Assembly: GCA_023859445.1 (NCBI GenBank)
Contig: GCA_023859445.1_4337.1
Reading direction: 5' to 3' (one strand)
Source: a phage
Length of the DNA stretch: 27,839 bases
Shown: piece after piece, positions 2,170-22,247 of the stretch
How the letters are laid out: every line of letters begins with the position of its first letter
How positions within the stretch are numbered: the stretch's first letter is position 1
Notes under the pieces: model-generated
The model's input: only the letters and a program-made list of their open reading frames with translations
The model's database searches: none
Told to the model about the DNA's origin: nothing
Made by a program: the position numbers and the translations under genes

Positions 2170-2199
2170 TTGAAAGTTCTTGACACATGTTTGTATAAT
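2170..2199 (+). promoter_or_regulatory. Candidate sigma70 promoter (TTGAAA-18-TATAAT), divergent from 2104-2132
   Basis: TTGAAA 2170-2175, TATAAT 2194-2199, TG immediately upstream of the -10. Confidence 0.45.
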
Positions 2200-2226
2200 G
2201 GTTTTGGGACTTGTATATATTACGGA

Positions 2227-2258
2227 GTTGACGAACCCTCCCCGAGGGATTCGTCAAC
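2227..2258 (+). promoter_or_regulatory. Long imperfect inverted repeat/hairpin just downstream of the promoter
   Basis: GTTGACGAACCCTC (2227-2240) pairs with GAGGGATTCGTCAAC (2244-2258): 14 bp with one bulged A, 3-nt loop. Confidence 0.55.
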
Positions 2259-2491
2259 CCCTCCCATACGGCTGAGATGCTTGCCTTGGGGTTTAAGGAT
2301 AAGTGTATCTAAATCTCATTTAAAGAAGTAACCCACTGAAATATCTACTGTTTCTTAATGTGCCGTAGATTCGCAACCATAAAAATGTAACGATTATTGG
2401 GCAGGCTTAAGGCCCGCCCTTTAGTTACCAAGTAATAAGAATAAAGGCACAACCTTCCCTAAAGAATCACAACGGCAACGTAACTATTCTC

Positions 2492-2521
2492 TTGCACACC
2501 ACAACATAATAGGGTACTATT
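2492..2521 (+). promoter_or_regulatory. Conserved phage promoter, copy 1 (TTGCAC-N17-TACTAT; palindrome AATAGGGTACTATT)
   Basis: -35 2492-2497, -10 2515-2520, palindrome 2508-2521; 35 nt upstream of the 2555 gene. Confidence 0.5.
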
Positions 2522-2554
2522 CACTTATCGAAACGAGACAGAGGAGTGAGGGTT

Positions 2555-2746
2555 ATGTTTAAACGTGGTCAGTTGGTTAAATGCGCCGACGGTGAACACG
2601 GCATAATTGAATTAAAATCTAATTTATTTCCCGGTGAGTACGTAGTGACCGTGCAAAAGGTGAGAGGGGTAAATTCACAAATATACGTAGAAGAGGAGAA
2701 CTTAAAACTCATTGGCAACAATTTTAAATTCAAAGGGGCGAAGTGA
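2555..2746 (+). CDS. Hypothetical small protein (63 aa)
   Basis: ATG 2555 with SD GAGGAG (2541-2546); track ORF 2546-2746 begins at an upstream GTG. Confidence 0.55.
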   Translation: MFKRGQLVKCADGEHGIIELKSNLFPGEYVVTVQKVRGVNSQIYVEEENLKLIGNNFKFKGAK

Positions 2747-2946
2747 TGGAAGAATTATTTGAAGAACTGAAACATCATGATTTCGAGGAAATATATTTCG
2801 TAGCTGAACGCTACGAGGTGCATCTGGCGGACGGTATAACGGTTATTACATCTACCAGCGAGCGAATGTTAAATAGCTTACGAGCAATACGAACGGCATC
2901 GAATCGTGATGCTTGTGCCGACGACTCTGAGGGAGGTTGCCGTTAA
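2743..2946 (+). CDS. Hypothetical small acidic protein (67 aa)
   Basis: ORF track; ATGA overlap with upstream gene. Confidence 0.5.
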   Translation: MMEELFEELKHHDFEEIYFVAERYEVHLADGITVITSTSERMLNSLRAIRTASNRDACADDSEGGCR

Positions 2947-3125
2947 TGCGAATCCGTATAACTGACCGCAGGCTTGTACGTATAACTGACCGCAGGCTTA
3001 TAGATTTCGGTATCTCGGTAGGTGATGTTTTTCCGGCGTTCAGCATCAACCATTATGGTTTTATGATTGAGTACAAATGGTCGTTATTGTTCGTGTATCG
3101 GGATGAATGTGAGGTTCTGGTATGA
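2946..3125 (+). CDS. Hypothetical small protein (59 aa) containing an in-frame tandem repeat
   Basis: ATG 2946 overlapping upstream stop (TAATG), SD GAGGGAGG 2929-2936; encodes RITDRRLV/RITDRRLI from the 24-bp repeat. Confidence 0.4.
   Translation: MRIRITDRRLVRITDRRLIDFGISVGDVFPAFSINHYGFMIEYKWSLLFVYRDECEVLV
2955..3002. repeat. 24-bp tandem direct repeat, two copies (23/24 identical)
   Basis: CGTATAACTGACCGCAGGCTTGTA (2955-2978) and CGTATAACTGACCGCAGGCTTATA (2979-3002). Confidence 0.9.
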
Positions 3126-3277
3126 GAGAAGCATTTGAACGGTGGGCTGTGGTCGAGGGTCTGCCGGTTAACAAGGGTTCAAAGAAAGAGTACCTGAACG
3201 TTAAGACGCGTCTCGCGTGGCGGGCGTGGAAAGCTGGTGTGCAATCCTTGATTGAAAGAGGTGTGAGGTATGGGTGA
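3122..3277 (+). CDS. Hypothetical small protein (51 aa)
   Basis: ATG 3122 overlapping upstream stop (ATGA), SD GAGG upstream; ends TGA 3275-3277, overlapping next start; under the track length cutoff. Confidence 0.4.
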   Translation: MREAFERWAVVEGLPVNKGSKKEYLNVKTRLAWRAWKAGVQSLIERGVRYG

Positions 3278-3470
3278 GTGGATTAAGTGTAGTGAGATGC
3301 TGCCGGGTAATGGGTATACGGATAAAGAGTTCCTGGTGTATGAAACGTTAAATAACGCAGTTCAGCACGATTATTACATAGTTCCTGATGACGGGAGAAA
3401 GCCTTTCTGGAATCACTACGATAAGTACGTGACGCACTGGATGCCGTTACCCGAGCCGCCAGAAGTGTGA
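3270..3470 (+). CDS. DUF551-like phage protein (66 aa)
   Basis: ORF track; C-terminal HWMPLPEPP motif typical of DUF551 small phage proteins (recalled from memory). Confidence 0.6.
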   Translation: MGEWIKCSEMLPGNGYTDKEFLVYETLNNAVQHDYYIVPDDGRKPFWNHYDKYVTHWMPLPEPPEV

Positions 3471-4960: not shown

Positions 4961-5269
4961 TTGGATAAATTTACTGAAACAGTGACGGGGTGGCTTCTCG
5001 CTGCCGCACTGGTCGGTGGATTGGTCGGGCTAAGACAACATAAAAAGTCTATATCCGGGCCGATTGACGGACTGGTATTTCTTCTCACCGGCTTCGCGTG
5101 TGCTATTTTCGGTGCACCTCTTGCCGCTCAATGGTTCGGTATTACCGGTGAGCGTGAGATAGCTGGCCTCGGATTCATCATTGCCATTCTCTGGATGCCT
5201 ATCTATTCCCGCCTTTCTGGCATCGTATCGGGTGGCGATATTGCCCGCCCAGGAGGACCGAATGACTGA
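4961..5269 (+). CDS. Putative holin, three predicted TM segments (102 aa from TTG; alternative GTG at 4982)
   Basis: ORF track; three hydrophobic stretches and charged C-terminus; directly upstream of the endolysin; non-ATG start. Confidence 0.55.
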   Translation: MDKFTETVTGWLLAAALVGGLVGLRQHKKSISGPIDGLVFLLTGFACAIFGAPLAAQWFGITGEREIAGLGFIIAILWMPIYSRLSGIVSGGDIARPGGPND

Positions 5270-5534
5270 GCTATTCTGGTTTGTCGTAATGCTGGCAATG
5301 GGCGCTTCGTCCCTGTTCAACGTGTATAATGAACGCGTGGACGACGGGCTGTTCGGGCGTGTTCTCTATATCCTGACTGCTATCGTCTGTGCCGCCGGAT
5401 GTATTCACCTGTTACAGGGCAGCATGTCGCCTACGCTGCCTGAGACATTAATCACATTAGTCGCGCTGCGCCAGATTCGCCAGGCGTGGCTGTCATACGG
5501 AGGGCATAAGCGTGTCTCGAAACATTTCAGATAA
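5262..5534 (+). CDS. Second small membrane protein of the lysis cassette, two TM segments (90 aa; holin or antiholin candidate)
   Basis: ATG 5262 with SD AGGAGG (5251-5256), overlapping the upstream stop; two hydrophobic segments. Confidence 0.5.
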   Translation: MTELFWFVVMLAMGASSLFNVYNERVDDGLFGRVLYILTAIVCAAGCIHLLQGSMSPTLPETLITLVALRQIRQAWLSYGGHKRVSKHFR

Positions 5535-6000
5535 TGGATTGCATTTTACCGCCGCGTTCGAGGGGTTCCGTGGAACCGCGTATCGTGCTACGTCGAACGA
5601 GAAGTACCTGACTATTGGCTACGGGCACTACGGACCGGACGTAACCCCGGGTAAGACCATCACCCCGGGGCAAGGCCTCCTGTTACTGAATCGTGATATG
5701 GCTAAGGCCGTAGCTGCGGTTGACGCAGCAGCACACCATTCATTGACACAGGCACAGTTCGACGCAGTGTGCGACCTGGTGTATAACGCGGGTGCCGGTG
5801 TGATTGCGGCTACTACTGGCACAGGTAAGGCACTGCGTTCTGGTGACGTCACGACTCTGCGGGCTAAGCTGGCGCTGTTCATCAACCAGAACGGCAAACC
5901 GATACTTGGACTGCGTCGTCGTACCGCCGGTCGTCTGGCGCTGTTCGACGGTAAACCGTGGCAGGAGGCTGAGGCTATCGGGCGCGCGGTGAAAGGTTGA
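5512..6000 (+). CDS. Endolysin, GH24 phage lysozyme (P22 gp19 / T4 E-like)
   Basis: ORF track; GTG start with SD GGAGGG (5499-5504); conserved N-terminal pattern FEGFRGTAYRATSNEKYLTIGYGHYG and C-terminal RR..ALF recalled from GH24 lysozymes. Confidence 0.85.
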   Translation: MSRNISDNGLHFTAAFEGFRGTAYRATSNEKYLTIGYGHYGPDVTPGKTITPGQGLLLLNRDMAKAVAAVDAAAHHSLTQAQFDAVCDLVYNAGAGVIAATTGTGKALRSGDVTTLRAKLALFINQNGKPILGLRRRTAGRLALFDGKPWQEAEAIGRAVKG

Positions 6001-6064
6001 CACCTGAGACTAATCCGACGATACTTAAATCACCTCCTGTTCCATACCTCTGCTCTCCAGTTTT

Positions 6065-6097
6065 ATCCCGGCCCTGACCCAGCCGGGATTTTTTTTA
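6065..6097 (+). terminator. Intrinsic terminator after the lysis cassette
   Basis: Stem TCCCGGC/GCCGGGA (6066-6072 / 6082-6088), 9-nt loop, followed by 8 T. Confidence 0.7.
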
Positions 6098-6118
6098 TCT
6101 ATTTTCTGCAATGACTAG

Positions 6119-6147
6119 TTGACTATTACCTACGACCCTATTATATT
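6119..6147 (+). promoter_or_regulatory. Candidate sigma70 promoter (TTGACT-17-TATATT)
   Basis: -35 6119-6124, -10 6142-6147; about 35 nt upstream of the 6181 gene. Confidence 0.45.
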
Positions 6148-6180
6148 TACTCCATCGACAACGAGAACGGAGTAGAGAAG

Positions 6181-6429
6181 ATGAGTAACGTACAGACAAT
6201 CGCAATAACCGAGGAACTTGAAGCCAAATGTATCGCATGGACTATGGGTAATGACCCGGTTGCTATGCGTAAATTTCCAATGAAAATCACAGACATCGAA
6301 GCATTCAAAGATGCACAACTGATGGCACGCATCGCCGTTAGTAACCTGAGCAATAGCATCCCTGCGGACGCGTTCTGGTTCGCTGCAATGCAGACCCTGA
6401 AGGCCGCTTATGCAGGAGAGAAGAAATGA
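6181..6429 (+). CDS. Hypothetical protein (82 aa)
   Basis: ORF track; SD GGAG upstream. Confidence 0.5.
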   Translation: MSNVQTIAITEELEAKCIAWTMGNDPVAMRKFPMKITDIEAFKDAQLMARIAVSNLSNSIPADAFWFAAMQTLKAAYAGEKK

Positions 6430-6623
6430 AAGTTAAAGCCGCTAAAATTCTCTGGTTAGCCGCCCTTGACTATGTGACAGAGGGTAAAGTGTATGATGTA
6501 TACAACCCGACAGCTACTGGTTTCGGTTATATAGACTCCGACGACGACTGCTGTATTTTCATAGACTTTGGTAACGATGAAGGTGATGGCTTCCACGGCG
6601 TTAAATGGGAGATTGTAGAATGA
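6426..6623 (+). CDS. Hypothetical acidic protein (65 aa)
   Basis: ORF track; ATGA overlap. Confidence 0.5.
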   Translation: MKVKAAKILWLAALDYVTEGKVYDVYNPTATGFGYIDSDDDCCIFIDFGNDEGDGFHGVKWEIVE

Positions 6624-6778
6624 GCGAACAAGGTCAAGTAAGCCAACCACTACGGGTAGGCCGTAAAGTCAGCCACACCCCGTTCCCGACACGCGAGGAA
6701 CTGATGAAACGTAACAGTTTCCCTGGGCCGGACAAGAACAAGTATCTCAATCGCATGTGGGGAGAGCGTAAAGAATGA
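6620..6778 (+). CDS. Hypothetical small protein (52 aa)
   Basis: ATG 6620 overlapping upstream stop (ATGA); codons counted to TGA 6776-6778; below track cutoff. Confidence 0.4.
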   Translation: MSEQGQVSQPLRVGRKVSHTPFPTREELMKRNSFPGPDKNKYLNRMWGERKE

Positions 6779-6948
6779 CTGACCGCGAATACGAGAAGGC
6801 ATGCGTAGAGTCGGCGCTAGGTATGTACGCTATTGAAGAGTGCGACAAGACGATTGCCGAATTAGAAAAGGCGTTATCTGTGGTACAGGAGCATCGTCGT
6901 GAATTGATTAACCGCTTCAACCTGAACAAAGGTGACACCAATGCCTAA
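6775..6948 (+). CDS. Hypothetical small protein (57 aa)
   Basis: ATG 6775 overlapping upstream stop (ATGA); codons counted to TAA 6946-6948. Confidence 0.4.
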   Translation: MTDREYEKACVESALGMYAIEECDKTIAELEKALSVVQEHRRELINRFNLNKGDTNA

Positions 6949-7231
6949 AATCACAATCGCGTCACTTGAGCGTCGTATTCTGGTCCTTGAGTCAGAGAAA
7001 CAGACGTTAGGCGGGCAACTGTCAATTAACGGTGAGTTTCAACTGGAGGCGTTTAAGGAGTTACTGGCTATTAAGACGCAAGAACCGAACGTGTACGCGG
7101 GGTTGTTCGTCGGTGAAGACAGTTCTTCGCTGGCTTATTACAACACGGCAACCGCAGCTTCAAAGGATGGGGCTGATGTGATAATCCCGCTGTACGACAA
7201 TGTTGTCGGACCAGAAGATGAAAGCGCCTGA
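6941..7231 (+). CDS. Hypothetical protein (96 aa)
   Basis: ATG 6941 in frame with track ORF 6932-7231; overlaps the upstream gene end. Confidence 0.5.
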   Translation: MPKITIASLERRILVLESEKQTLGGQLSINGEFQLEAFKELLAIKTQEPNVYAGLFVGEDSSSLAYYNTATAASKDGADVIIPLYDNVVGPEDESA

Positions 7232-7400
7232 ACCGGTAGTTATTGATGGCGTCCTGTGGAAACCATACTCGGTTAACCACATCGACGCCGACGGGAAGAA
7301 GTTTAGCTTCTACATTTTTGCAATTAGCCGTGAGCACGCCGCTTGCGTGGTTTCCGATATACGAGAAACGGCGTGGCTCGGTGATGAGATAGTGGGGTGA
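7218..7400 (+). CDS. Hypothetical small protein (60 aa)
   Basis: In-frame ATG 7218 within track ORF 7200-7400. Confidence 0.4.
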   Translation: MKAPEPVVIDGVLWKPYSVNHIDADGKKFSFYIFAISREHAACVVSDIRETAWLGDEIVG

Positions 7401-7404
7401 GAGT

Positions 7405-7488
7405 ATGAGTCTCGAGGTGGTTATCGGTCTGGTTGGTCTTAGTTACTTCGTTGGGCTGTTGGTTGGATTTCTGTGGGGTAGATACTAA
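7405..7488 (+). CDS. Tiny hydrophobic peptide (27 aa, single predicted TM)
   Basis: ATG 7405, SD GGTGAGAG upstream; encodes MSLEVVIGLVGLSYFVGLLVGFLWGRY; TAA 7486-7488 overlaps next ATG. Confidence 0.3.
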   Translation: MSLEVVIGLVGLSYFVGLLVGFLWGRY

Positions 7489-7658
7489 TGTTCAGCGACA
7501 TCAACGCGGCAATCGAAGAAGCAATCTGGCGTCGCTACAACGGCGAGCAGCAGCGGCACTTCTGCCTGGTACAACGCGGTAACATGATTGCTGTGGTACA
7601 GGACCGTGATAATAAATATCCGAATGCGATGTGGACAACGAGGAATTTTTTAGGATGA
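7488..7658 (+). CDS. Hypothetical small protein (56 aa)
   Basis: ATG 7488 (TAATG overlap); codons counted to TGA 7656-7658. Confidence 0.4.
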   Translation: MFSDINAAIEEAIWRRYNGEQQRHFCLVQRGNMIAVVQDRDNKYPNAMWTTRNFLG

Positions 7659-7891
7659 TTACCAGCATTCCGAACCTGATTAAAGAATTTGGCACGATGG
7701 CCGAGACATGCCGACAAACCGGCATCAACGAAATGACGATTGCGAAGTACAGCAAAGACGTCGATTGCGAGCGCCACGTAATTTATAACAATCGTCTGAT
7801 GACGCACGTTAAGACAAGCCCGGTGTTATTCACGCGCCGGGGTATTACTAAAACAGAGCAACGTATTGCTAAAGAGGGGAGTGGGGAATGA
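7655..7891 (+). CDS. Small putative DNA-binding protein (78 aa)
   Basis: ATG 7655 in frame with track ORF 7631-7891, ATGA overlap; helix-turn-helix-like segment CRQTGINEMTIAKYSKD. Confidence 0.45.
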   Translation: MITSIPNLIKEFGTMAETCRQTGINEMTIAKYSKDVDCERHVIYNNRLMTHVKTSPVLFTRRGITKTEQRIAKEGSGE

Positions 7892-8046
7892 TTAGTATTC
7901 TGGAGTTCATCGACAACCAAGTTTGGTACGAGCCAGAGTTAAATAAGTATTCAGTTAATGGGAAAATATTTCGGCGCAAAGGCCAGGCAGAGCGTTACGC
8001 AGCTAAACTATACCGTCAGCTTGTCAAGGATGGTTTCTTCAAATGA
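7888..8046 (+). CDS. Hypothetical small protein (52 aa)
   Basis: ATG 7888 (ATGA overlap); codons counted to TGA 8044-8046. Confidence 0.4.
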   Translation: MISILEFIDNQVWYEPELNKYSVNGKIFRRKGQAERYAAKLYRQLVKDGFFK

Positions 8047-8144
8047 GACTACTAATCATCCCTAACGCCTGGGCCATTCCCGTAGCTAACGACCATTACG
8101 GCGGCGATGGTAAAAGAGCACCACGCCACGGCCCATACAACTGA
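8043..8144 (+). CDS. Hypothetical tiny protein (33 aa)
   Basis: ATG 8043 (ATGA overlap); ends TGA 8142-8144 just before a terminator hairpin. Confidence 0.3.
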   Translation: MRLLIIPNAWAIPVANDHYGGDGKRAPRHGPYN

Positions 8145-8148
8145 TACA

Positions 8149-8169
8149 AGCCCTCTACCGAGGGCTTTT
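8149..8169 (+). terminator. Intrinsic terminator-like hairpin ending the small-ORF block
   Basis: Stem AGCCCTC/GAGGGCT (8149-8155 / 8160-8166), loop TACC, then TTT. Confidence 0.5.
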
Positions 8170-8206
8170 CTGTACATCCTGCCCAATCACCCTATATAAT
8201 CCCTTT

Positions 8207-8814: not shown

Positions 8815-10061
8815 GTATTCAGCTATCCGCACCGCAGGCACTGTTCCTGAATTGCGATAACAAATACAAAGCCTATGTCGGCGGCTTCGGCAGCGGAAAG
8901 ACATTTGTTGGCTGCCTTGACCTGCTTACGTTTATGCTCAAGCATCCAGGTACGCGCCTGGGTTACTTCGGCCCGACATACCCGGCTATCCGTGACATCT
9001 TCTACCCGACATTTGAGGAAGCCGCTAACCTGCTCGGCCTCGATGTGCTGGTTAAATCTGGCGACAAAGAAGTCGTGGTTACTCGCGGTAAGACGGTGCT
9101 CGGTACAGTTATCTGCCGTTCTATGGATAACCCAGGCTCGATAGTCGGCTTCAAAATCGCTGCTGCGGTCGTGGATGAGCTTGATGTATTGAGCCGTGAG
9201 AAAGCTGAGCTGGCGTGGAACAAAATAGTCGCCCGTATGCGTCTGGTTATCCCCGGCGTAACTAACCACATCTCTGTCACCACGACACCGGAAGGGTTCA
9301 AGTTCGTCTACGCCAAGTTCAAAGAGAACCCGACGCCGAGTTACTCGATGGTGCAGGCTTCTACACACGAGAACGCGCGATTCCTGCCGCCTGACTACAT
9401 TAGCTCACTGACCGAGACTTACCCCGCGCAACTGATTAACGCGTACCTGAACGGTGAGTTCGTTAACCTGACATCCGGCAGCGTGTATTATGCGTATGAC
9501 CGTCGCAAGCACCGCAGCAAAGAGACAATTCAACCGGGCGATACACTGTACATCGGGCAGGACTTCAACGTTACGAAGAACGCCAGCGCCGTGTATGTGC
9601 AACGTAAAGACGGCTGGCACGCGGTGGCAGAACTGAAAGGTCTGTTTGATACGCCGGACACCGTGCGTGTAATTACTGAGAAGTGGAAGTCGCAGGGCCA
9701 CCGCATAGTCGTTTACCCGGACGCCAGCGGCAAGAACCGCAAGACCAACTCGGCGTCAATCTCAGATATTGCGTTACTCCAGCAGGCCGGTTTCGATGTT
9801 CGCGCTAAATCCGCCAACCCTCCGGTTAAAGACCGTGTTTTAGCCGTGAATACCGCACTGGAAAAAGGTAAGCTGTGGGTTAATGACCACTTATGCCCCG
9901 AGATAGCGAAGACGCTGGAGCAGCAGGCATACGATGATAACGGAGAGCCAGCTAAAGACGGCATCATTGACCATATGGCGGATGCTCTCGGCTATCCTGT
10001 AGTTTACGAGATGCCGGTGGTTAAACCAGTAATCAACATCCCGGTGACTTTCGCACTTTAA
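8811..10061 (+). CDS. Terminase large subunit (416 aa)
   Basis: ORF track; Walker A GGFGSGKT near the N-terminus; ATGA overlap with upstream gene; followed by portal. Confidence 0.85.
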   Translation: MSIQLSAPQALFLNCDNKYKAYVGGFGSGKTFVGCLDLLTFMLKHPGTRLGYFGPTYPAIRDIFYPTFEEAANLLGLDVLVKSGDKEVVVTRGKTVLGTVICRSMDNPGSIVGFKIAAAVVDELDVLSREKAELAWNKIVARMRLVIPGVTNHISVTTTPEGFKFVYAKFKENPTPSYSMVQASTHENARFLPPDYISSLTETYPAQLINAYLNGEFVNLTSGSVYYAYDRRKHRSKETIQPGDTLYIGQDFNVTKNASAVYVQRKDGWHAVAELKGLFDTPDTVRVITEKWKSQGHRIVVYPDASGKNRKTNSASISDIALLQQAGFDVRAKSANPPVKDRVLAVNTALEKGKLWVNDHLCPEIAKTLEQQAYDDNGEPAKDGIIDHMADALGYPVVYEMPVVKPVINIPVTFAL

Positions 10062-11576: not shown

Positions 11577-11597
11577 AGCCCCGAAAGGGGCTTTCTT
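11577..11597 (+). terminator. Weak terminator-like hairpin after portal
   Basis: Stem AGCCCC/GGGGCT, GAAA loop, then TTCTTAT; overlaps start region of next gene so probably leaky. Confidence 0.35.
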
Positions 11598-11602
11598 ATA
11601 GT

Positions 11603-12679
11603 ATGCTATTAACTTTAGCGCCACAGGGTTTATCTATGAGCTTACTTACATCACTAATCAGCCACCAGATATGGCTGCAACGCACCGCATCCGGTGAGGT
11701 GAAAGACCTCGCGCCGTTCATTAAGGAGATGCGGGACGAAATCAAACGGCAGGTGCTGCTATTCGGCGACGACGGTCGCAGCACTGCGCGACTGAATAAA
11801 CTGTTACGTGACCTTGAAGAAGTACTGACAGGACTTACTGGTGACTGGCAAACAAAGCTGGCAGAAGACCTCAAGGAACTGGCGGTGTATGAAGCTGAGT
11901 GGAACGTAAAGACCCTGACCGCCAACGTAGATGCGGAATTTGTTACGCCCACCGCCGAACAGGTGTGGGCCGCTGCTGAGTTTCAGCCATTATCATTGAG
12001 TGGCAAGCCAGTTGATTTCACTAAACTGATGTCAGGTTGGGGTGAAACGGAAGTAGCACGTCTTGTAACCGGCGTTAAGATGGGCTTTGTACAAGGTCAA
12101 ACAACACGGCAGATTGTTAAGAATGTAGTAGGCGCCGGTGGGCTGGCTGACATCTCTGAGCGTAACGCCGCTACCGTCATCCGCACCGCGCTGTCTCACG
12201 TGTCCAACGAAGCCCGTAACGAGACGTACCGCCAGAACGACGACATCATAGAGAAGTACGAGTGGGTGTCAACGCTTGACAGCCGCACCAGTACGATTTG
12301 CAGGGTCAGAGACGGGATGACGTGGGAAATTGGTAAGGGGCCGATGCCCCCTGCCCATCCGAACTGCCGGTCGTGCACGGCTCCGGTAATCAGTTCCGAG
12401 TTCGACTTCCTCGATAAAGGCGCAAAACGCGCGGCTAAAGGCGCGGAAGGTGGCACTCAGGTAAGCGTAGACACCACTTACTACGAGTTCCTTAAACAAC
12501 AACCGGCGTGGTTTCAGGACCAGGCGCTCGGCCCGGTGCGAGGTAAGATTTTCCGTAACAGCGGTATATCGCCGGAAGAGTTTCGCGTAATATCTGTAGA
12601 TGGTTTCGGGAATCCGCTCACGCTTAAGCAGATGGCGGAACTCGATAAACGTGTTGCTGATTATCTGAAAGGGGAATAA
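11603..12679 (+). CDS. Head morphogenesis protein (SPP1 gp7 / Mu F-like minor head protein)
   Basis: ORF track; motif region DSRTSTICRVRDGMTWEIGKGPMPPAHPNCRSC characteristic of this family (from memory); alternative start ATG 11636. Confidence 0.8.
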   Translation: MLLTLAPQGLSMSLLTSLISHQIWLQRTASGEVKDLAPFIKEMRDEIKRQVLLFGDDGRSTARLNKLLRDLEEVLTGLTGDWQTKLAEDLKELAVYEAEWNVKTLTANVDAEFVTPTAEQVWAAAEFQPLSLSGKPVDFTKLMSGWGETEVARLVTGVKMGFVQGQTTRQIVKNVVGAGGLADISERNAATVIRTALSHVSNEARNETYRQNDDIIEKYEWVSTLDSRTSTICRVRDGMTWEIGKGPMPPAHPNCRSCTAPVISSEFDFLDKGAKRAAKGAEGGTQVSVDTTYYEFLKQQPAWFQDQALGPVRGKIFRNSGISPEEFRVISVDGFGNPLTLKQMAELDKRVADYLKGE

Positions 12680-13140
12680 TGATGGGCTTTTTCAAAGTAA
12701 CTGACGTACCGTCTCGTCGCGTAGTCCAGTACGCCCGCGTGTCTGGCTCTGGAGAGAACGTGGTGTTTATTGATGATGAAAGTGTACTCGGTACACCCGA
12801 AGACGATATGCCGTTTGCAGATAAAACCGGTATTGCGTTACCCGCGGCGGGCATGCTTTATGAAATTCCGTATCTGGCGGATGCAGGTGACGTGTATTTC
12901 TCGGTGCAACCGAAAGACACCGAGCTGGTCGACGGTAGCGCCACCATCACCGTCGAAGTTAAGGCGGGTAAAGCGCCGTGTGTACTGACCTGGTACAAAG
13001 ACGGTAAGGAAGTGGTAAACGCCCCGGAAGAGGCTTTGTCTCTAACGGTTAATGCAGTTGGCGAATACTTTGTTAAAGTTACTGATGCCGATGGTGTAGA
13101 GGCCGTAAGCAAAGCGGCGAAGGTTACTAAGCCAGAATGA
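12679..13140 (+). CDS. Hypothetical protein with C-terminal Ig-like (beta-sandwich) segment, 153 aa
   Basis: ORF track; C-terminal pattern TITVEVKAGKAPCVLTWYKDGKEV...GEYFVKVTDADG resembles Ig-like/BIG domains; possibly virion decoration. Confidence 0.45.
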   Translation: MMGFFKVTDVPSRRVVQYARVSGSGENVVFIDDESVLGTPEDDMPFADKTGIALPAAGMLYEIPYLADAGDVYFSVQPKDTELVDGSATITVEVKAGKAPCVLTWYKDGKEVVNAPEEALSLTVNAVGEYFVKVTDADGVEAVSKAAKVTKPE

Positions 13141-13144
13141 TAAA

Positions 13145-13169
13145 AGGCCCCTTTCGGGGCCTTATTTTT
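13145..13169. terminator. Bidirectional intrinsic terminator
   Basis: Stem AGGCCCC/GGGGCCT, loop TTTC, flanked by AAAA upstream and TTATTTTT downstream; lies between convergent genes ending at 13140 (+) and 13172 (-). Confidence 0.75.
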
Positions 13170-13171
13170 CA

Positions 13172-13273
13172 TCAAAGTTCACCATTCCCGCTATCTGCGT
13201 CCTCGACCCCGCTAACAGCCCACACAAACAATCCTAAATTAACCAGTAACACAAATGAAATTGCTACCATCAT
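13172..13273 (-). CDS. Small single-pass membrane peptide (33 aa: MMVAISFVLLVNLGLFVWAVSGVEDADSGNGEL)
   Basis: Minus-strand ATGATG at 13273/13270, SD GGAGG 5 nt upstream, own copy of the conserved promoter upstream and the bidirectional terminator downstream; hydrophobic core with acidic tail. Confidence 0.5.
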   Translation of the reverse strand: MMVAISFVLLVNLGLFVWAVSGVEDADSGNGEL

Positions 13274-13298
13274 AACCACCTCCACTATACGTTTACTT

Positions 13299-13328
13299 AA
13301 TAGTACCCTATTATGTTGGTGTCTGCAA
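13299..13328 (-). promoter_or_regulatory. Conserved phage promoter, copy 3 (TTGCAG-N17-TACTAT, minus strand)
   Basis: -35 complement of 13323-13328, -10 complement of 13300-13305; palindrome AATAGTACCCTATT at 13299-13312. Confidence 0.5.
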
Positions 13329-13342
13329 ACTATTTGTTTACG

Positions 13343-13394
13343 TATTCCAGTTATTCCACTCAATTGTAAATGTTGGAATAAGCTATTCGAATAG
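13343..13394. promoter_or_regulatory. Operator-like array of TATTCCA/TGGAATA half-sites plus 12-bp palindrome CTATTCGAATAG
   Basis: TATTCCA 13343-13349 and 13352-13358, TGGAATA 13374-13380 (8-bp IR with 15-nt spacer), palindrome 13383-13394; lies between divergent promoters. Confidence 0.4.
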
Positions 13395-13423
13395 TTGACT
13401 TTTCACCAAAAATGTGCTAAGCT
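13395..13423 (+). promoter_or_regulatory. Candidate sigma70 promoter with extended -10 (TTGACT-17-TGcTAAGCT)
   Basis: -35 13395-13400, TG 13415-13416, -10 TAAGCT 13418-13423. Confidence 0.45.
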
Positions 13424-13603
13424 CCACCTGAGCTTGTGAAGTATGAACAAGCGACCGCGGCGCGGGCAGGTAACGGAGCGGGACGTAAGTCCTGAGTGTA
13501 GTTACGCTGACGCGTTCGGAAGGGCAATACTCTATTGCTTGTGTAAAAAGTAACTGGTTTACTGAGATTACGCCGTTTCTATGTTTAAATGATAAGGACT
13601 AGC

Positions 13604-13630
13604 GCCCCGCTTTAAGGCGGGGCTTTACTT
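13604..13630 (+). terminator. GC-rich hairpin with weak T-tract just upstream of Rz
   Basis: Stem GCCCCGC/GCGGGGC (13604-13610 / 13617-13623), loop TTTAAG, then TTTACTT. Confidence 0.35.
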
Positions 13631-13647
13631 ATCGAGAAAGGGGAAAC

Positions 13648-14034
13648 ATGAATCTTAAAGCAACTGTCGTAGCGGGAGCATGTTTCATCATCCTGGCTTA
13701 CGCACACGGCATCTACCAGTATCGCAGCGGCTGGAACGGAGGCCGGGCGAATCTCGTTTCGCAGCAACAGCAGAAAGCACAGGCTGAGCTTGTGAAGAAA
13801 ACACAACGGCAGCAGCAGGATGAATCAAAGGCCGCAGCCGCCGATAACGAAGGCAAGACGAAATCAGAGGTGATCACCCGTGAAGTCGTTAAGTACATTA
13901 AAACGCCTGGCCGCAGCGTGTGCACTTTTGACCCTGAGCGCGTGCAGCTCAAGTCCCGCGCCGTCGCAAACGCCAATTCCATCCCCGGATACGACGATGA
14001 TGCAGCCGCCGTGCAAACTGGCACTGCCAAGTAA
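13648..14034 (+). CDS. Rz: Inner-membrane spanin (Rz-like i-spanin), 128 aa
   Basis: ORF track; N-terminal TM segment, then Gln/Lys/Glu-rich predicted coiled coil; contains an embedded lipoprotein gene in the +1 frame. Confidence 0.7.
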   Translation: MNLKATVVAGACFIILAYAHGIYQYRSGWNGGRANLVSQQQQKAQAELVKKTQRQQQDESKAAAADNEGKTKSEVITREVVKYIKTPGRSVCTFDPERVQLKSRAVANANSIPGYDDDAAAVQTGTAK

Positions 14035-14143
14035 CGACGCGGACGAGGATTTAGCTATTGACGTCCAGAACGCAGAATGTGTACGGCAACTGAGACTTAA
14101 AGTGTTCATGTTGCAGGATTACGTGAGGAATATTCTGGAATAG
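13880..14143 (+). CDS. Rz1: Outer-membrane lipoprotein spanin (Rz1-like o-spanin), 87 aa
   Basis: ORF track (GTG start, SD AGAGGTGA); signal peptide with lipobox LSAC followed by Pro-rich mature region; starts inside Rz in the +1 frame and extends 109 nt past the Rz stop. Confidence 0.7.
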   Translation: MKSLSTLKRLAAACALLTLSACSSSPAPSQTPIPSPDTTMMQPPCKLALPSNDADEDLAIDVQNAECVRQLRLKVFMLQDYVRNILE

Positions 14144-14222
14144 TTGCCTTGTATGTTGGAATAATTTATTCTTGACATGTAAATCCGGGTGGCCCGGATT
14201 CCAACGTCCAGGGGACATACTG

Positions 14223-14849
14223 ATGAGCGAAGAAGTGAAAGACGAAACTATCGAACAACAAGAGACTAAGACCACGTTTACCAAAGAAGAAGTTGACGCG
14301 CTGGTATCCGGTCTTAAAGCTAACAACGAGAAGCTCTTGTCTGAAAAGAAAGCTGCTGCCGCTGCTGCGAAAGAAGCCGCAGATGCGAAGCTGAAAGCCG
14401 AACAGGAACGCGCAAAACAGAACGGCGAACTTGAGGCATTCGAGAAAACGTTGCGCAGTCAGTATGAGCCAGTACTCGCCGAGAAAGACGGTAAGATTAG
14501 CAAAATGGCTGAGCGTATCCTCGGCGCAGAACGTAAATCAGTTATCAGCCAGTTGTCTGGCATGTTGATTGATGAGAGCGCAGCGGATATTATCGCTATG
14601 ATGGTCAAGACCGAGTTCGACGGCGATGACGTTGTGACCAAGTTCACAGGTGCAGATGGTAATGTCATCACCACCGACGCAGAGCAATTTAAAAAGTATC
14701 TGCGTGAGCACAAAGCATTTTCGCATCTGATTAAAGCAGATGCAGCAACCGGCGGCGGGGCTTCCGGTAACAAAAATTCTACTGGCGGGGCCGGTGGTAC
14801 GGACGTAATTCAACAAAAACTTAACGCCAAATACGGCAAACGAGGATAA
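14223..14849 (+). CDS. Scaffolding protein (putative), 208 aa
   Basis: ATG 14223 (SD AGGGGA) in frame with track ORF 14172-14849; acidic, Ala/Lys/Glu-rich helical sequence; immediately upstream of major capsid gene. Confidence 0.6.
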   Translation: MSEEVKDETIEQQETKTTFTKEEVDALVSGLKANNEKLLSEKKAAAAAAKEAADAKLKAEQERAKQNGELEAFEKTLRSQYEPVLAEKDGKISKMAERILGAERKSVISQLSGMLIDESAADIIAMMVKTEFDGDDVVTKFTGADGNVITTDAEQFKKYLREHKAFSHLIKADAATGGGASGNKNSTGGAGGTDVIQQKLNAKYGKRG

Positions 14850-22217: not shown

Positions 22218-22247
22218 AATAGTACCCTATTATATTTGGGTGCGCAA
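22218..22247 (-). promoter_or_regulatory. Conserved phage promoter, copy 4 (TTGCGC-N17-TACTAT, minus strand)
   Basis: -35 complement of 22242-22247, -10 complement of 22219-22224, palindrome AATAGTACCCTATT 22218-22231; drives the minus-strand accessory operon. Confidence 0.5.

Follow-up and report, generated by a model that had tools for sequence, protein, structure and literature searches.

A predicted spanin gene pair among the head genes of a Kagunavirus phage and the structured RNA encoded upstream of it

Introduction

Spanin genes typically lie directly 3' of the endolysin gene, although this position does not define them. In the phage DNA described here (27,839 nt in all, referred to as the window), holin-like genes and an endolysin gene had been recognized at 4961–6000, and the only spanin candidates, an overlapped pair at 13648–14143, about 7.6 kb away. 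The original prediction took this split to imply that the spanins are expressed with the late structural genes rather than with the holin and endolysin. The locus raises the questions of whether the pair is a genuine spanin, whether its displacement is peculiar to this genome, and what governs its transcription. Phages of the Guernseyvirinae, the subfamily to which this phage is assigned below, are often isolated as therapeutic agents against K1 E. coli and Salmonella. They must time their gene expression without an RNA polymerase of their own, and we found no transcriptome study of a Jerseyvirus or of the Guernseyvirinae in the literature.

The source phage and its lysis genes

Nucleotide identity assigns the source phage to Kagunavirus, subfamily Guernseyvirinae. 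Over the 801 nt of the spanin locus (window positions 13400–14200), identity is 98.8% to Escherichia phage K1H and 98.8–98.9% to the whole set of K1H, fKuEco01 and further Kagunavirus isolates, and a match to this segment is present in 198 phage records. The complete record of K1H, the start of which falls inside the window, lists in order the terminase, portal, head morphogenesis and Hoc-like decoration genes, two genes annotated 'Rz-like spanin', the scaffold and the major head protein; its two holins and endolysin lie near the opposite end of the linear map from the spanin and head genes. The corresponding genes of the window are as follows.

4961–5269, + strand: holin, first of two; phrog_2359, E 2.3e-32; holin in the K1H annotation
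5262–5534, + strand: second holin, or antiholin; phrog_2508, E 2.4e-34, to residues 28–117 of the ORF beginning at 5181; K1H 38177–38449
5512–6000, + strand: endolysin, lysozyme family; Pfam PF00959, E 8e-27, and PHROG endolysin families
11603–12679: Mu-F-like head morphogenesis gene flanking the spanin pair; Pfam/PHROG
12679–13140: Hoc-like Ig decoration gene flanking the spanin pair; Pfam/PHROG
13648–14034, + strand: i-spanin, 128 aa; ATG start; phrog_2536, E 4.7e-56; 'Rz-like spanin' in K1H
13880–14143, + strand: o-spanin, 87-aa precursor; GTG start, +1 frame; phrog_5672 and phrog_1267; lipobox scan
14223–14849, + strand: head scaffolding protein; phrog_206, E 6.8e-43

Pfam and PHROG matches agree with the assignment of holin-like genes and an endolysin to 4961–6000, and the pair does lie between head morphogenesis and Ig-like genes on one side and the scaffold on the other, with the Mu-F-like and Hoc-like genes upstream of it. 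From the endolysin stop codon to the i-spanin start is 7,647 nt, in line with the 7.6 kb first reported, and with at least 14 genes in this interval the layout is not the canonical contiguous holin-endolysin-spanin cassette. The nine small ORFs between the endolysin and the terminase match families of unknown function only, and no lysis family. The scaffold probably starts at the ATG at 14223, not at the TTG at 14172: a ribosome-binding site (AGGGGA) lies 8 nt upstream of this ATG, and the phrog_206 alignment begins at residue 20 of the long scaffold ORF.

The description of the pair as the only spanin candidates holds for the window and for the K1H genome. All ORFs of 25 aa or more in these two sequences, the K1H genome being complete, were scanned for a lipobox; there was no second spanin and no other lipoprotein gene in a credible gene context, the remaining matches being antisense to or embedded in known genes. 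The same scan, over the same two sequences, found no ORF elsewhere that combines a lipobox with a C-terminal transmembrane helix, and the K1H genome carries no other annotated spanin or outer-membrane disruptor.

The spanin genes and their products

Both ORFs are present exactly as originally described, and both match PHROG families labelled 'Rz-like spanin', the i-spanin over its full length (phrog_2536, E 4.7e-56) and the o-spanin with E values of 7.4e-30 (phrog_5672) and 6.1e-20 (phrog_1267); the pair has weaker matches to three further Rz-like families. The two genes are adjacent and, among the embedded, overlapped and separated architectures, have the overlapped one: the o-spanin start codon lies 232 nt inside the i-spanin gene, the two genes have 155 nt in common, and the o-spanin gene extends 109 nt past the i-spanin stop codon. 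Shine-Dalgarno sequences precede each start, AAAGGGGAAAC 5' of the i-spanin ATG and AGAGGTGATCACCC 5' of the o-spanin GTG.

The i-spanin has a single N-terminal transmembrane helix by hydropathy, with a 19-residue maximum of 1.72 at residues 5–23 and no second hydrophobic segment. A single-sequence AF2 prediction likewise has a helix from residue 3, continuous to residue 63 (pLDDT 67–85), with residues 64–128 at pLDDT below 52. The o-spanin N-terminus, MKSLSTLKRLAAACALLTLSA followed by CSSSPAPS, consists of a basic N-region, a hydrophobic core and the lipobox L-S-A-C at residues 19–22 (Cys22), which by sequence reading and the lipobox scan is a signal-peptidase-II signal. The mature protein begins C-S-S-S, with Ser rather than Asp at position +2, as for sorting to the outer membrane, and continues with a Pro-rich linker and two further cysteines. 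Periplasmic cysteines for intermolecular disulfides, described as universal in spanins in the heading of section 12 of the spanin census (PMC6139136), are thus available in both partners (Cys92 of the i-spanin, Cys45 and Cys67 of the o-spanin).

In sequence the pair stands apart from the classical examples. No Pfam spanin family matches either protein at E values up to 0.1, and the best Pfam match, to DUF2514, is sub-threshold (E 0.021; 15.3 bits against a cut-off of 26); with no Pfam match above threshold, the pair lies outside the lambda Rz/Rz1 sequence family. It resembles lambda Rz/Rz1 in joining an inner-membrane protein anchored at its N-terminus to an outer-membrane lipoprotein encoded in the +1 frame, both with periplasmic cysteines, but differs in having no Pfam-level match and in layout, since Rz1 is fully embedded in Rz and that pair directly follows S and R, whereas here there is a 109-nt overhang and a 7.6-kb separation. 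The unimolecular spanin gp11 of T1, also a siphovirus of E. coli, serves the same lysis step, but gp11 combines a lipobox and a C-terminal membrane helix in one polypeptide; in the 87-aa protein the signal peptide is the sole hydrophobic segment, and there is none at the C-terminus.

Conservation of the pair and of its position

Fifty related loci were compared, including those of Jerseyvirus, a Klebsiella phage of the Guernseyvirinae and Dhillonvirus. All 50 have a +1-frame ORF with a cysteine following a lipobox-like motif (LSAC, LASC, LSGC, LNGC or TGC), and all 50 also keep the upstream GGAGG and the C-terminal motif DxDEDLxxDVxNxxC of the o-spanin. The frame and the lipobox-like motif persist even where i-spanin identity is only about 33–65%; for the Dhillonvirus and Klebsiella phage homologues it is about 33–48%. 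Cys92 of the i-spanin and Cys45 and Cys67 of the o-spanin are common to the Kagunavirus, Jerseyvirus, Klebsiella and Dhillonvirus homologues. By tblastn, the i-spanin is matched in 666 phage records.

The pair belongs to a family that has been described. Kongari et al. (2018) define an overlapped 'Jersey' family of 27 members, including K1H, K1G, K1ind1-3, Jersey, SETP3, HK578 and SSL-2009a, in which K1H is named for both the i- and the o-spanin (PMC6139136). The present locus is near-identical to that of K1H, the i-spanin differing at one residue (V48 here, A48 in K1H), and falls in the same family with phrog_2536 and phrog_5672; it has the overlapped architecture, lipobox and cysteine pattern in common with the Jersey-family members, from which nothing material sets it apart.

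The position is conserved too. Spanin genes follow the Mu-F-like head gene and precede the scaffold in Jerseyvirus Shelanagig, Klebsiella phage VLCpiS11a and Dhillonvirus SSL-2009a; in SSL-2009a the holin and endolysin are about 6.6 kb from the spanins around the circular map. The same split in these three groups makes it an old and stable trait of a large clade: judged by gene order, it is ancestral, conserved in the Guernseyvirinae and Dhillonvirus, and no peculiarity of this genome.

The pair and its displacement are both already known, from RefSeq, the spanin census and genome announcements. RefSeq annotates K1H gp06 and gp07 as Rz-like spanins, and the 2019 genome announcement of Schulenberg, a Guernseyvirinae-like phage of Escherichia, states that the spanins are genetically separate from the holin and endolysin (PMC6763661), which is the same observation on a different isolate, given with no regulatory analysis. 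In the Jerseyvirus SeF1 the split is implied by gene numbering, with spanins Gp_009/010 and holins and endolysin Gp_063-065 (PMC9409062), and the SeF1 lysis genes belong to the same PHROG families as those of this phage. A published precedent outside the clade is T4, in which the spanin genes PseT.3/PseT.2 lie away from the holin (t) and endolysin (e) genes according to the legend of Fig. 8 of the spanin census (PMC6139136). The T4 spanin genes do not overlap (the 'separated' architecture), and the lysis genes of that phage are all dispersed, whereas here the two holins and the endolysin still form a compact cassette and the spanins alone lie elsewhere. Annotated, published and clade-wide as it is, the arrangement is therefore an ordinary finding. 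It is also a clean example of lysis cassettes whose split has been stable in three or more related groups of phages (666 records), and annotators should expect such splits.

Function of the pair

Two readings would deny the pair a role as spanin. A membrane protein and a lipoprotein could instead serve superinfection exclusion or receptor masking, in the manner of T5 Llp or Cor, as an accessory insertion in the head operon, and the distance from holin and endolysin, the separate promoter and the ~30-nt direct repeats with palindromes (see below) do make up a 'moron'-like layout; the lack of a Pfam spanin match also fits, as does the literature, in which we found no experimental test of this pair or of any Jersey-family spanin, the family assignment being bioinformatic. 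We nevertheless consider such a role very unlikely. A type-II membrane protein, an overlapped +1-frame lipoprotein gene and periplasmic cysteines together are the signature of spanins (PMC6139136), several independent Rz-like PHROG families are matched, the genome is otherwise without a spanin or annotated outer-membrane disruptor, and conservation is universal across several genera, unlike that of an accessory gene. The other reading takes the o-spanin ORF for a chance open frame within and beyond the gene of a single membrane protein, as its GTG start and the abundance of short ORFs in all frames might suggest. This can be dismissed with near certainty and is already refuted by the conservation data: the frame, the lipobox-like cysteine motif, the GGAGG and the C-terminal motif recur in every one of the 50 loci, including those with i-spanins only 33–48% identical, and the PHROG family match has an E value of 7e-30.

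We hold with high confidence that this is a genuine two-component overlapped spanin of the Jersey family in its ancestral position among the head genes, probably transcribed from its own promoter into the scaffold and capsid genes, with the split tolerated through a post-translational gate. Spanin subunits assemble across the periplasm late and are inactive while the peptidoglycan is intact; the outer membrane is fused or disrupted only once the wall has been destroyed by holin and endolysin. By analogy with this spanin biology, the inner-membrane-anchored i-spanin and the lipoprotein o-spanin would link both membranes through the wall, and would be held in check by intact peptidoglycan until the holin and endolysin act. 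With the gate acting after translation, the spanin genes need neither linkage nor common timing with those of holin and endolysin, any location from which they are expressed in the late phase would do, and the split is tolerated. Displaced spanins fit the accepted view that these proteins are gated by the cell wall, for which gene linkage to the holin is unnecessary.

Transcription signals

The pair had been said to be preceded by its own regulatory island, which is real and more elaborate than described, with a promoter and a structured RNA of ~200 nt. The elements around the pair are:

13144–13163, + strand (scores on both strands): hairpin terminator after the Hoc-like gene; 8-bp stem with 6 G-C pairs, then ATTTTTC
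13376–13388, no strand assigned: palindrome GAATA-N3-TATTC, first copy; 6 nt 5' of the -35 hexamer
13395–13423, + strand: sigma-70-like promoter, read from the sequence; TTGACT, 17-nt spacer, extended -10 TGcTAAGCT
13428–13537, + strand: 5' domain of a structured non-coding RNA; hairpin P1, long bulged stem-loop P2–P4, single-stranded UUCGGAAGGGC; covariance model score 139.8 bits
13602–13623, + strand: G+C-rich hairpin, weak terminator or leader structure; ends 24 nt before the i-spanin ATG; weak U tract
14159–14171, no strand assigned: palindrome GAATA-N3-TATTC, copy 2; 15 nt after the o-spanin stop; conserved in Shelanagig
14182–14200, + strand: scaffold 5' UTR hairpin AATCCGGG-TGG-CCCGGATT; no U tract

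The promoter is the sole TTGAC-N-TGnTAnnnT site in the window, and its TG and both hexamers are conserved in relatives; some 200 untranslated nucleotides separate it from the i-spanin ATG. The terminator at 13144, the promoter at 13395 and the 80-nt gap from the o-spanin stop (14143) to the scaffold ATG (14223), in which no terminator-like site is predicted, together suggest a unit composed of leader, spanins, scaffold and major capsid gene. The pair would most likely be transcribed from this sigma-70-type promoter, and the transcript would run through the structured leader of ~200 nt and on into the scaffold gene and the major capsid gene. Promoter, start site and read-through of the hairpin at 13602–13623 are all predictions.

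The original proposal ties spanin expression to the late structural genes and not to holin and endolysin. Expression with structural genes is plausible, with the pair inside the head-gene block, no terminator predicted ahead of the scaffold and, in Dhillonvirus, an overlap between the i-spanin start and the 3' end of the head morphogenesis gene. Other features complicate the proposal. The terminator at 13144–13163 is a strong hairpin predicted to end the transcript of the upstream head genes, and with a promoter of their own and the structured leader the spanins could be timed differently from those genes. The holin and endolysin genes, moreover, are on the same strand, and from 2200 onwards no + strand terminator is predicted until a weak five-pair site at 9823 and then the site at 11577 after the portal gene, so that the timing of the cassette is not clearly distinct from that of the packaging and head genes. 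Downstream of the pair there are two opposite-strand genes between spanins and scaffold in Dhillonvirus and a canonical terminator after the o-spanin in the Klebsiella relative; co-transcription of spanins and scaffold is therefore not a conserved property.

A structured RNA upstream of the spanin genes

Positions 13395–13630 are 96–99% identical in nearly all relatives that carry the stretch, and this holds where the i-spanin is only 66–75% identical in protein sequence and the scaffold side about 60% in nucleotides. A diverged RNA homologue occupies the same place in Jerseyvirus behind a promoter of the same design (TAGACT-17-TGtTACGCT), so that the RNA heads the spanin-scaffold-capsid unit in both Kagunavirus and Jerseyvirus. 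Four RNA sequence types can be distinguished, namely the spanin copies of Kagunavirus and of Jerseyvirus, one type each, and two forms of the second copy (described below). Folded without constraints, all four adopt one shape, with P1, one or two bases, and the long bulged P2-P3-P4 stem-loop, and in the four types an invariant single-stranded UUCGGAAGGG and CUAUUG lie 3' of the stem-loops.

With MAFFT the inner helices of the four types came out misaligned, and a model-guided alignment of 22 distinct sequences was used instead, which is fitted to the model and so favours the modelled structure. In this alignment 96.3% of paired cells are complementary, against 81.5% in shuffles and 29–43% with the partners slid, and both sides have changed in 16 of 29 pairs, a count reached in none of 500 shuffles; one P2 position cycles through C-G, U-A and A-U. 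The margin is large despite the model-fitted alignment, and we regard the covariation support for the RNA structure as strong.

The covariance model finds one copy in the window, at 13428–13537, and none in the Dhillonvirus and Klebsiella loci. Rfam contains no corresponding family: a gathering-threshold search of the whole window and a search of 13100–14250 at E of at most 10 returned chance-level matches only, and ARAGORN found no tRNA or tmRNA. A distant blastn search detected no counterpart of the island among 5,426 E. coli genomes, and the island is therefore not a copy of a host sRNA. Two ORFs in the region were rejected as coding. A 36-aa ORF at 13443–13553 has 1-nt indels in relatives, and its substitutions are compensatory for RNA pairing; an 85-aa ORF at 13137–13394 spans the Hoc terminator, has no PHROG or Pfam match and falls where indels are densest in the locus. 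The structured RNA is unannotated and, set beside the known spanin pair, is the new item here.

A second RNA copy in relatives

Some Kagunavirus genomes contain a second, paralogous RNA copy with the same promoter. These were found by scanning IMG/VR with the loose pattern ACCGCGG-N40-65-TTCGGAAGG, the matches to which are mostly chance occurrences in unrelated contigs; among 120 pattern matches, the covariance model accepted contigs of Guernseyvirinae size alone. In one relative (L123) 240 nt separate the second copy from the homologue of window gene 2546–2746 downstream of it. From this copy it is about 3.0 kb to the holins and endolysin, downstream on the same strand, and 11.6 kb to the spanin copy, also downstream. 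In relatives with a second copy, the same promoter-plus-RNA module precedes each half of the split lysis system, and a paralogous module at the head of the holin/endolysin unit points to shared rather than separate control. At the corresponding place the present window, which is of the K1H type, has an unrelated leader of ~350 nt behind a near-consensus promoter at 2170–2199.

The layout recalls putL and putR of HK022, cis-acting antiterminator RNAs with two stem-loops just past the promoter (PMC9378689). As with putL/putR, two adjacent stem-loops (here P1, then P2–P4) come right after a sigma-70 promoter, less than 10 nt from the predicted start site, there are up to two paralogous copies per genome at two operon heads, and hairpins lie downstream. 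The domain differs in being about 90 nt long, against about 70 nt for put, and the resemblance is one of layout, not of membership. We suggest only tentatively, as a rather improbable reading, that the RNA could be a new cis-acting regulator, either a put-like processive antiterminator or a leader for read-through or stability, which would couple both lysis halves and the capsid genes, with the palindromes as operator.

An alternative view of the expression of the pair is that it is a real spanin transcribed early and independently by host RNA polymerase, with most transcripts ending at 13602–13623 to release a free small RNA of ~200 nt and the spanins made by leaky read-through. Such a scheme is unlikely on balance, if far from implausible. 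It would suit the near-consensus promoter (TTGACT-17-TGcTAAGCT), the hairpin at 13602–13623 followed by CTTTACTTATC with five U in eight positions, and an RNA conserved at 96–99% while its flanks drift, and early expression would be tolerable, as spanins are harmless until the wall is degraded. The hairpin has a compensatory C-G to U-A change in one relative (L009). Its Jerseyvirus counterpart, of different sequence, and the G+C-rich hairpins downstream of the second (B-type) copies are without a U tract and hence poor intrinsic terminators, which favours a leader over a terminated small RNA. The palindrome 6 nt upstream of the -35 hexamer also speaks against this scheme, in that it suggests regulation. 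We prefer transcription through the structured leader into the spanin, scaffold and capsid genes.

For phages of this kind, an operon-head RNA supported by covariation and palindromes confined to the cassette borders offer concrete handles on the timing of expression. We consider the RNA element, the paralogue that some relatives carry and the palindromes around the cassette to be of more interest than the split of the spanins itself.

Borders of the spanin cassette

The whole K1H genome contains only two exact copies of GAATA-N3-TATTC, one at each border of the spanin cassette (site sequences GAATAAGCTATTC and GAATAATTTATTC); with up to one mismatch allowed, about 0.6–0.9 matches would be expected by chance. 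Jerseyvirus retains the half-sites. Each palindrome sits inside a direct repeat of ~30 nt (TGTA(A)ATGTTGGAATAA...TTGAC), and the two repeats bracket the cassette. A TTGACA at 14172 was considered as a second promoter and rejected, having no acceptable -10 16–18 nt downstream and a hexamer that is unconserved in Jerseyvirus and the Klebsiella phage.

Just past the second palindrome, many relatives drop from more than 90% identity to about 60%, and this copy thus marks a mosaic joint. Beyond it, the scaffold 5' UTR hairpin at 14182–14200 is identical in Klebsiella phage VLCpiS11a, and the Shelanagig version, ACACCGGG-TGG-CCCGGTGT, contains a compensatory change.

Putative leader RNAs of the spanin and lysis genes

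A promoter and an unannotated structured RNA precede the inner-membrane spanin (i-spanin) gene, with 96–99% conservation of the stretch across ~180 phage records; the RNA has no match in Rfam, and covariation support for it is strong, with 16 of 29 pairs compensatory. Some Kagunavirus genomes have a paralogous second copy of this promoter-plus-RNA module, ~240 nt ahead of the gene that opens the rightward unit containing holin and endolysin. The leader at the equivalent place in the window (2190-2545) is unrelated. The window appears to have a second long leader there, containing long hairpins such as GTTGACGAACCCTC-CCC-GAGGGATTCGTCAAC at ~2228-2258.

13395-13623: promoter and ~200-nt structured non-coding RNA, directly 5' of the i-spanin gene
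L123 11808-11919 (-): second module copy in a related phage locus; further carriers are L063, L105, L109, L115, L126 and L149
2170-2545: near-consensus promoter TTGAAA-18-TATAAT, followed by ~350 nt without an ORF

Borders of the spanin cassette

The spanin cassette is bordered on both sides by a palindrome that occurs exactly twice in the genome, each copy enclosed by a direct repeat of ~30 nt (…ATGTTGGAATAA…TTGAC). The palindrome might serve as an operator or mark a boundary of recombination. Directly downstream of the stop codon of the outer-membrane spanin (o-spanin) gene, identity to many relatives (in this comparison L013, L015, L019, L028, L034, L035, L037 and L048) falls from >90% to ~60%. 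The region 14143-14250 contains a mosaic breakpoint, and from this fall in identity we conclude that two scaffold and capsid alleles have been swapped at the joint.

13376-13388 and 14159-14171: palindrome GAATA-N3-TATTC
14182-14200: hairpin AATCCGGG-TGG-CCCGGATT, 22 nt 5' of the scaffold ATG

The hairpin lacks a U tract, and it may serve to process or stabilise the mRNA; the same sequence is present in a Klebsiella phage, and compensatory changes are seen in Jerseyvirus. In the RefSeq K1H record the scaffold start codon is a TTG equivalent to window position 14172, and this longer reading frame would span the conserved hairpin. The ATG at 14223 has AGGGGA 8 nt upstream and agrees better with the PHROG alignment than does the TTG.

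Other repeats and small genes

A motif, AATAGTACCCTATTAT(A/G)T, is found in four intergenic regions, each upstream of gene blocks, and at 6119-6147 it overlaps a promoter-like TTGACT-17-TATATT. An exact direct repeat occurs both at the 5' end of the spanin leader RNA and within the i-spanin gene. The copy in the gene spans the codon for Val48, a position occupied by Ala in most relatives; the repeat could have arisen by chance or through a small gene conversion.

13299-13315 (+), 22218-22237 (+), 6135-6148 (+, partial) and 2505-2522 (-): AATAGTACCCTATTAT(A/G)T
13428-13441 (leader RNA) and 13784-13797 (i-spanin gene): 14-nt direct repeat CTGAGCTTGTGAAG
2955-3002: two tandem copies of the 24-nt unit CGTATAACTGACCGCAGGCTT(G/A)TA, in the small-gene region 5' of the holin genes

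Many small ORFs on the + strand at 6000-8200 and 2546-3470 match PHROG families of unknown function, and their equivalents are largely unannotated in the K1H RefSeq record.
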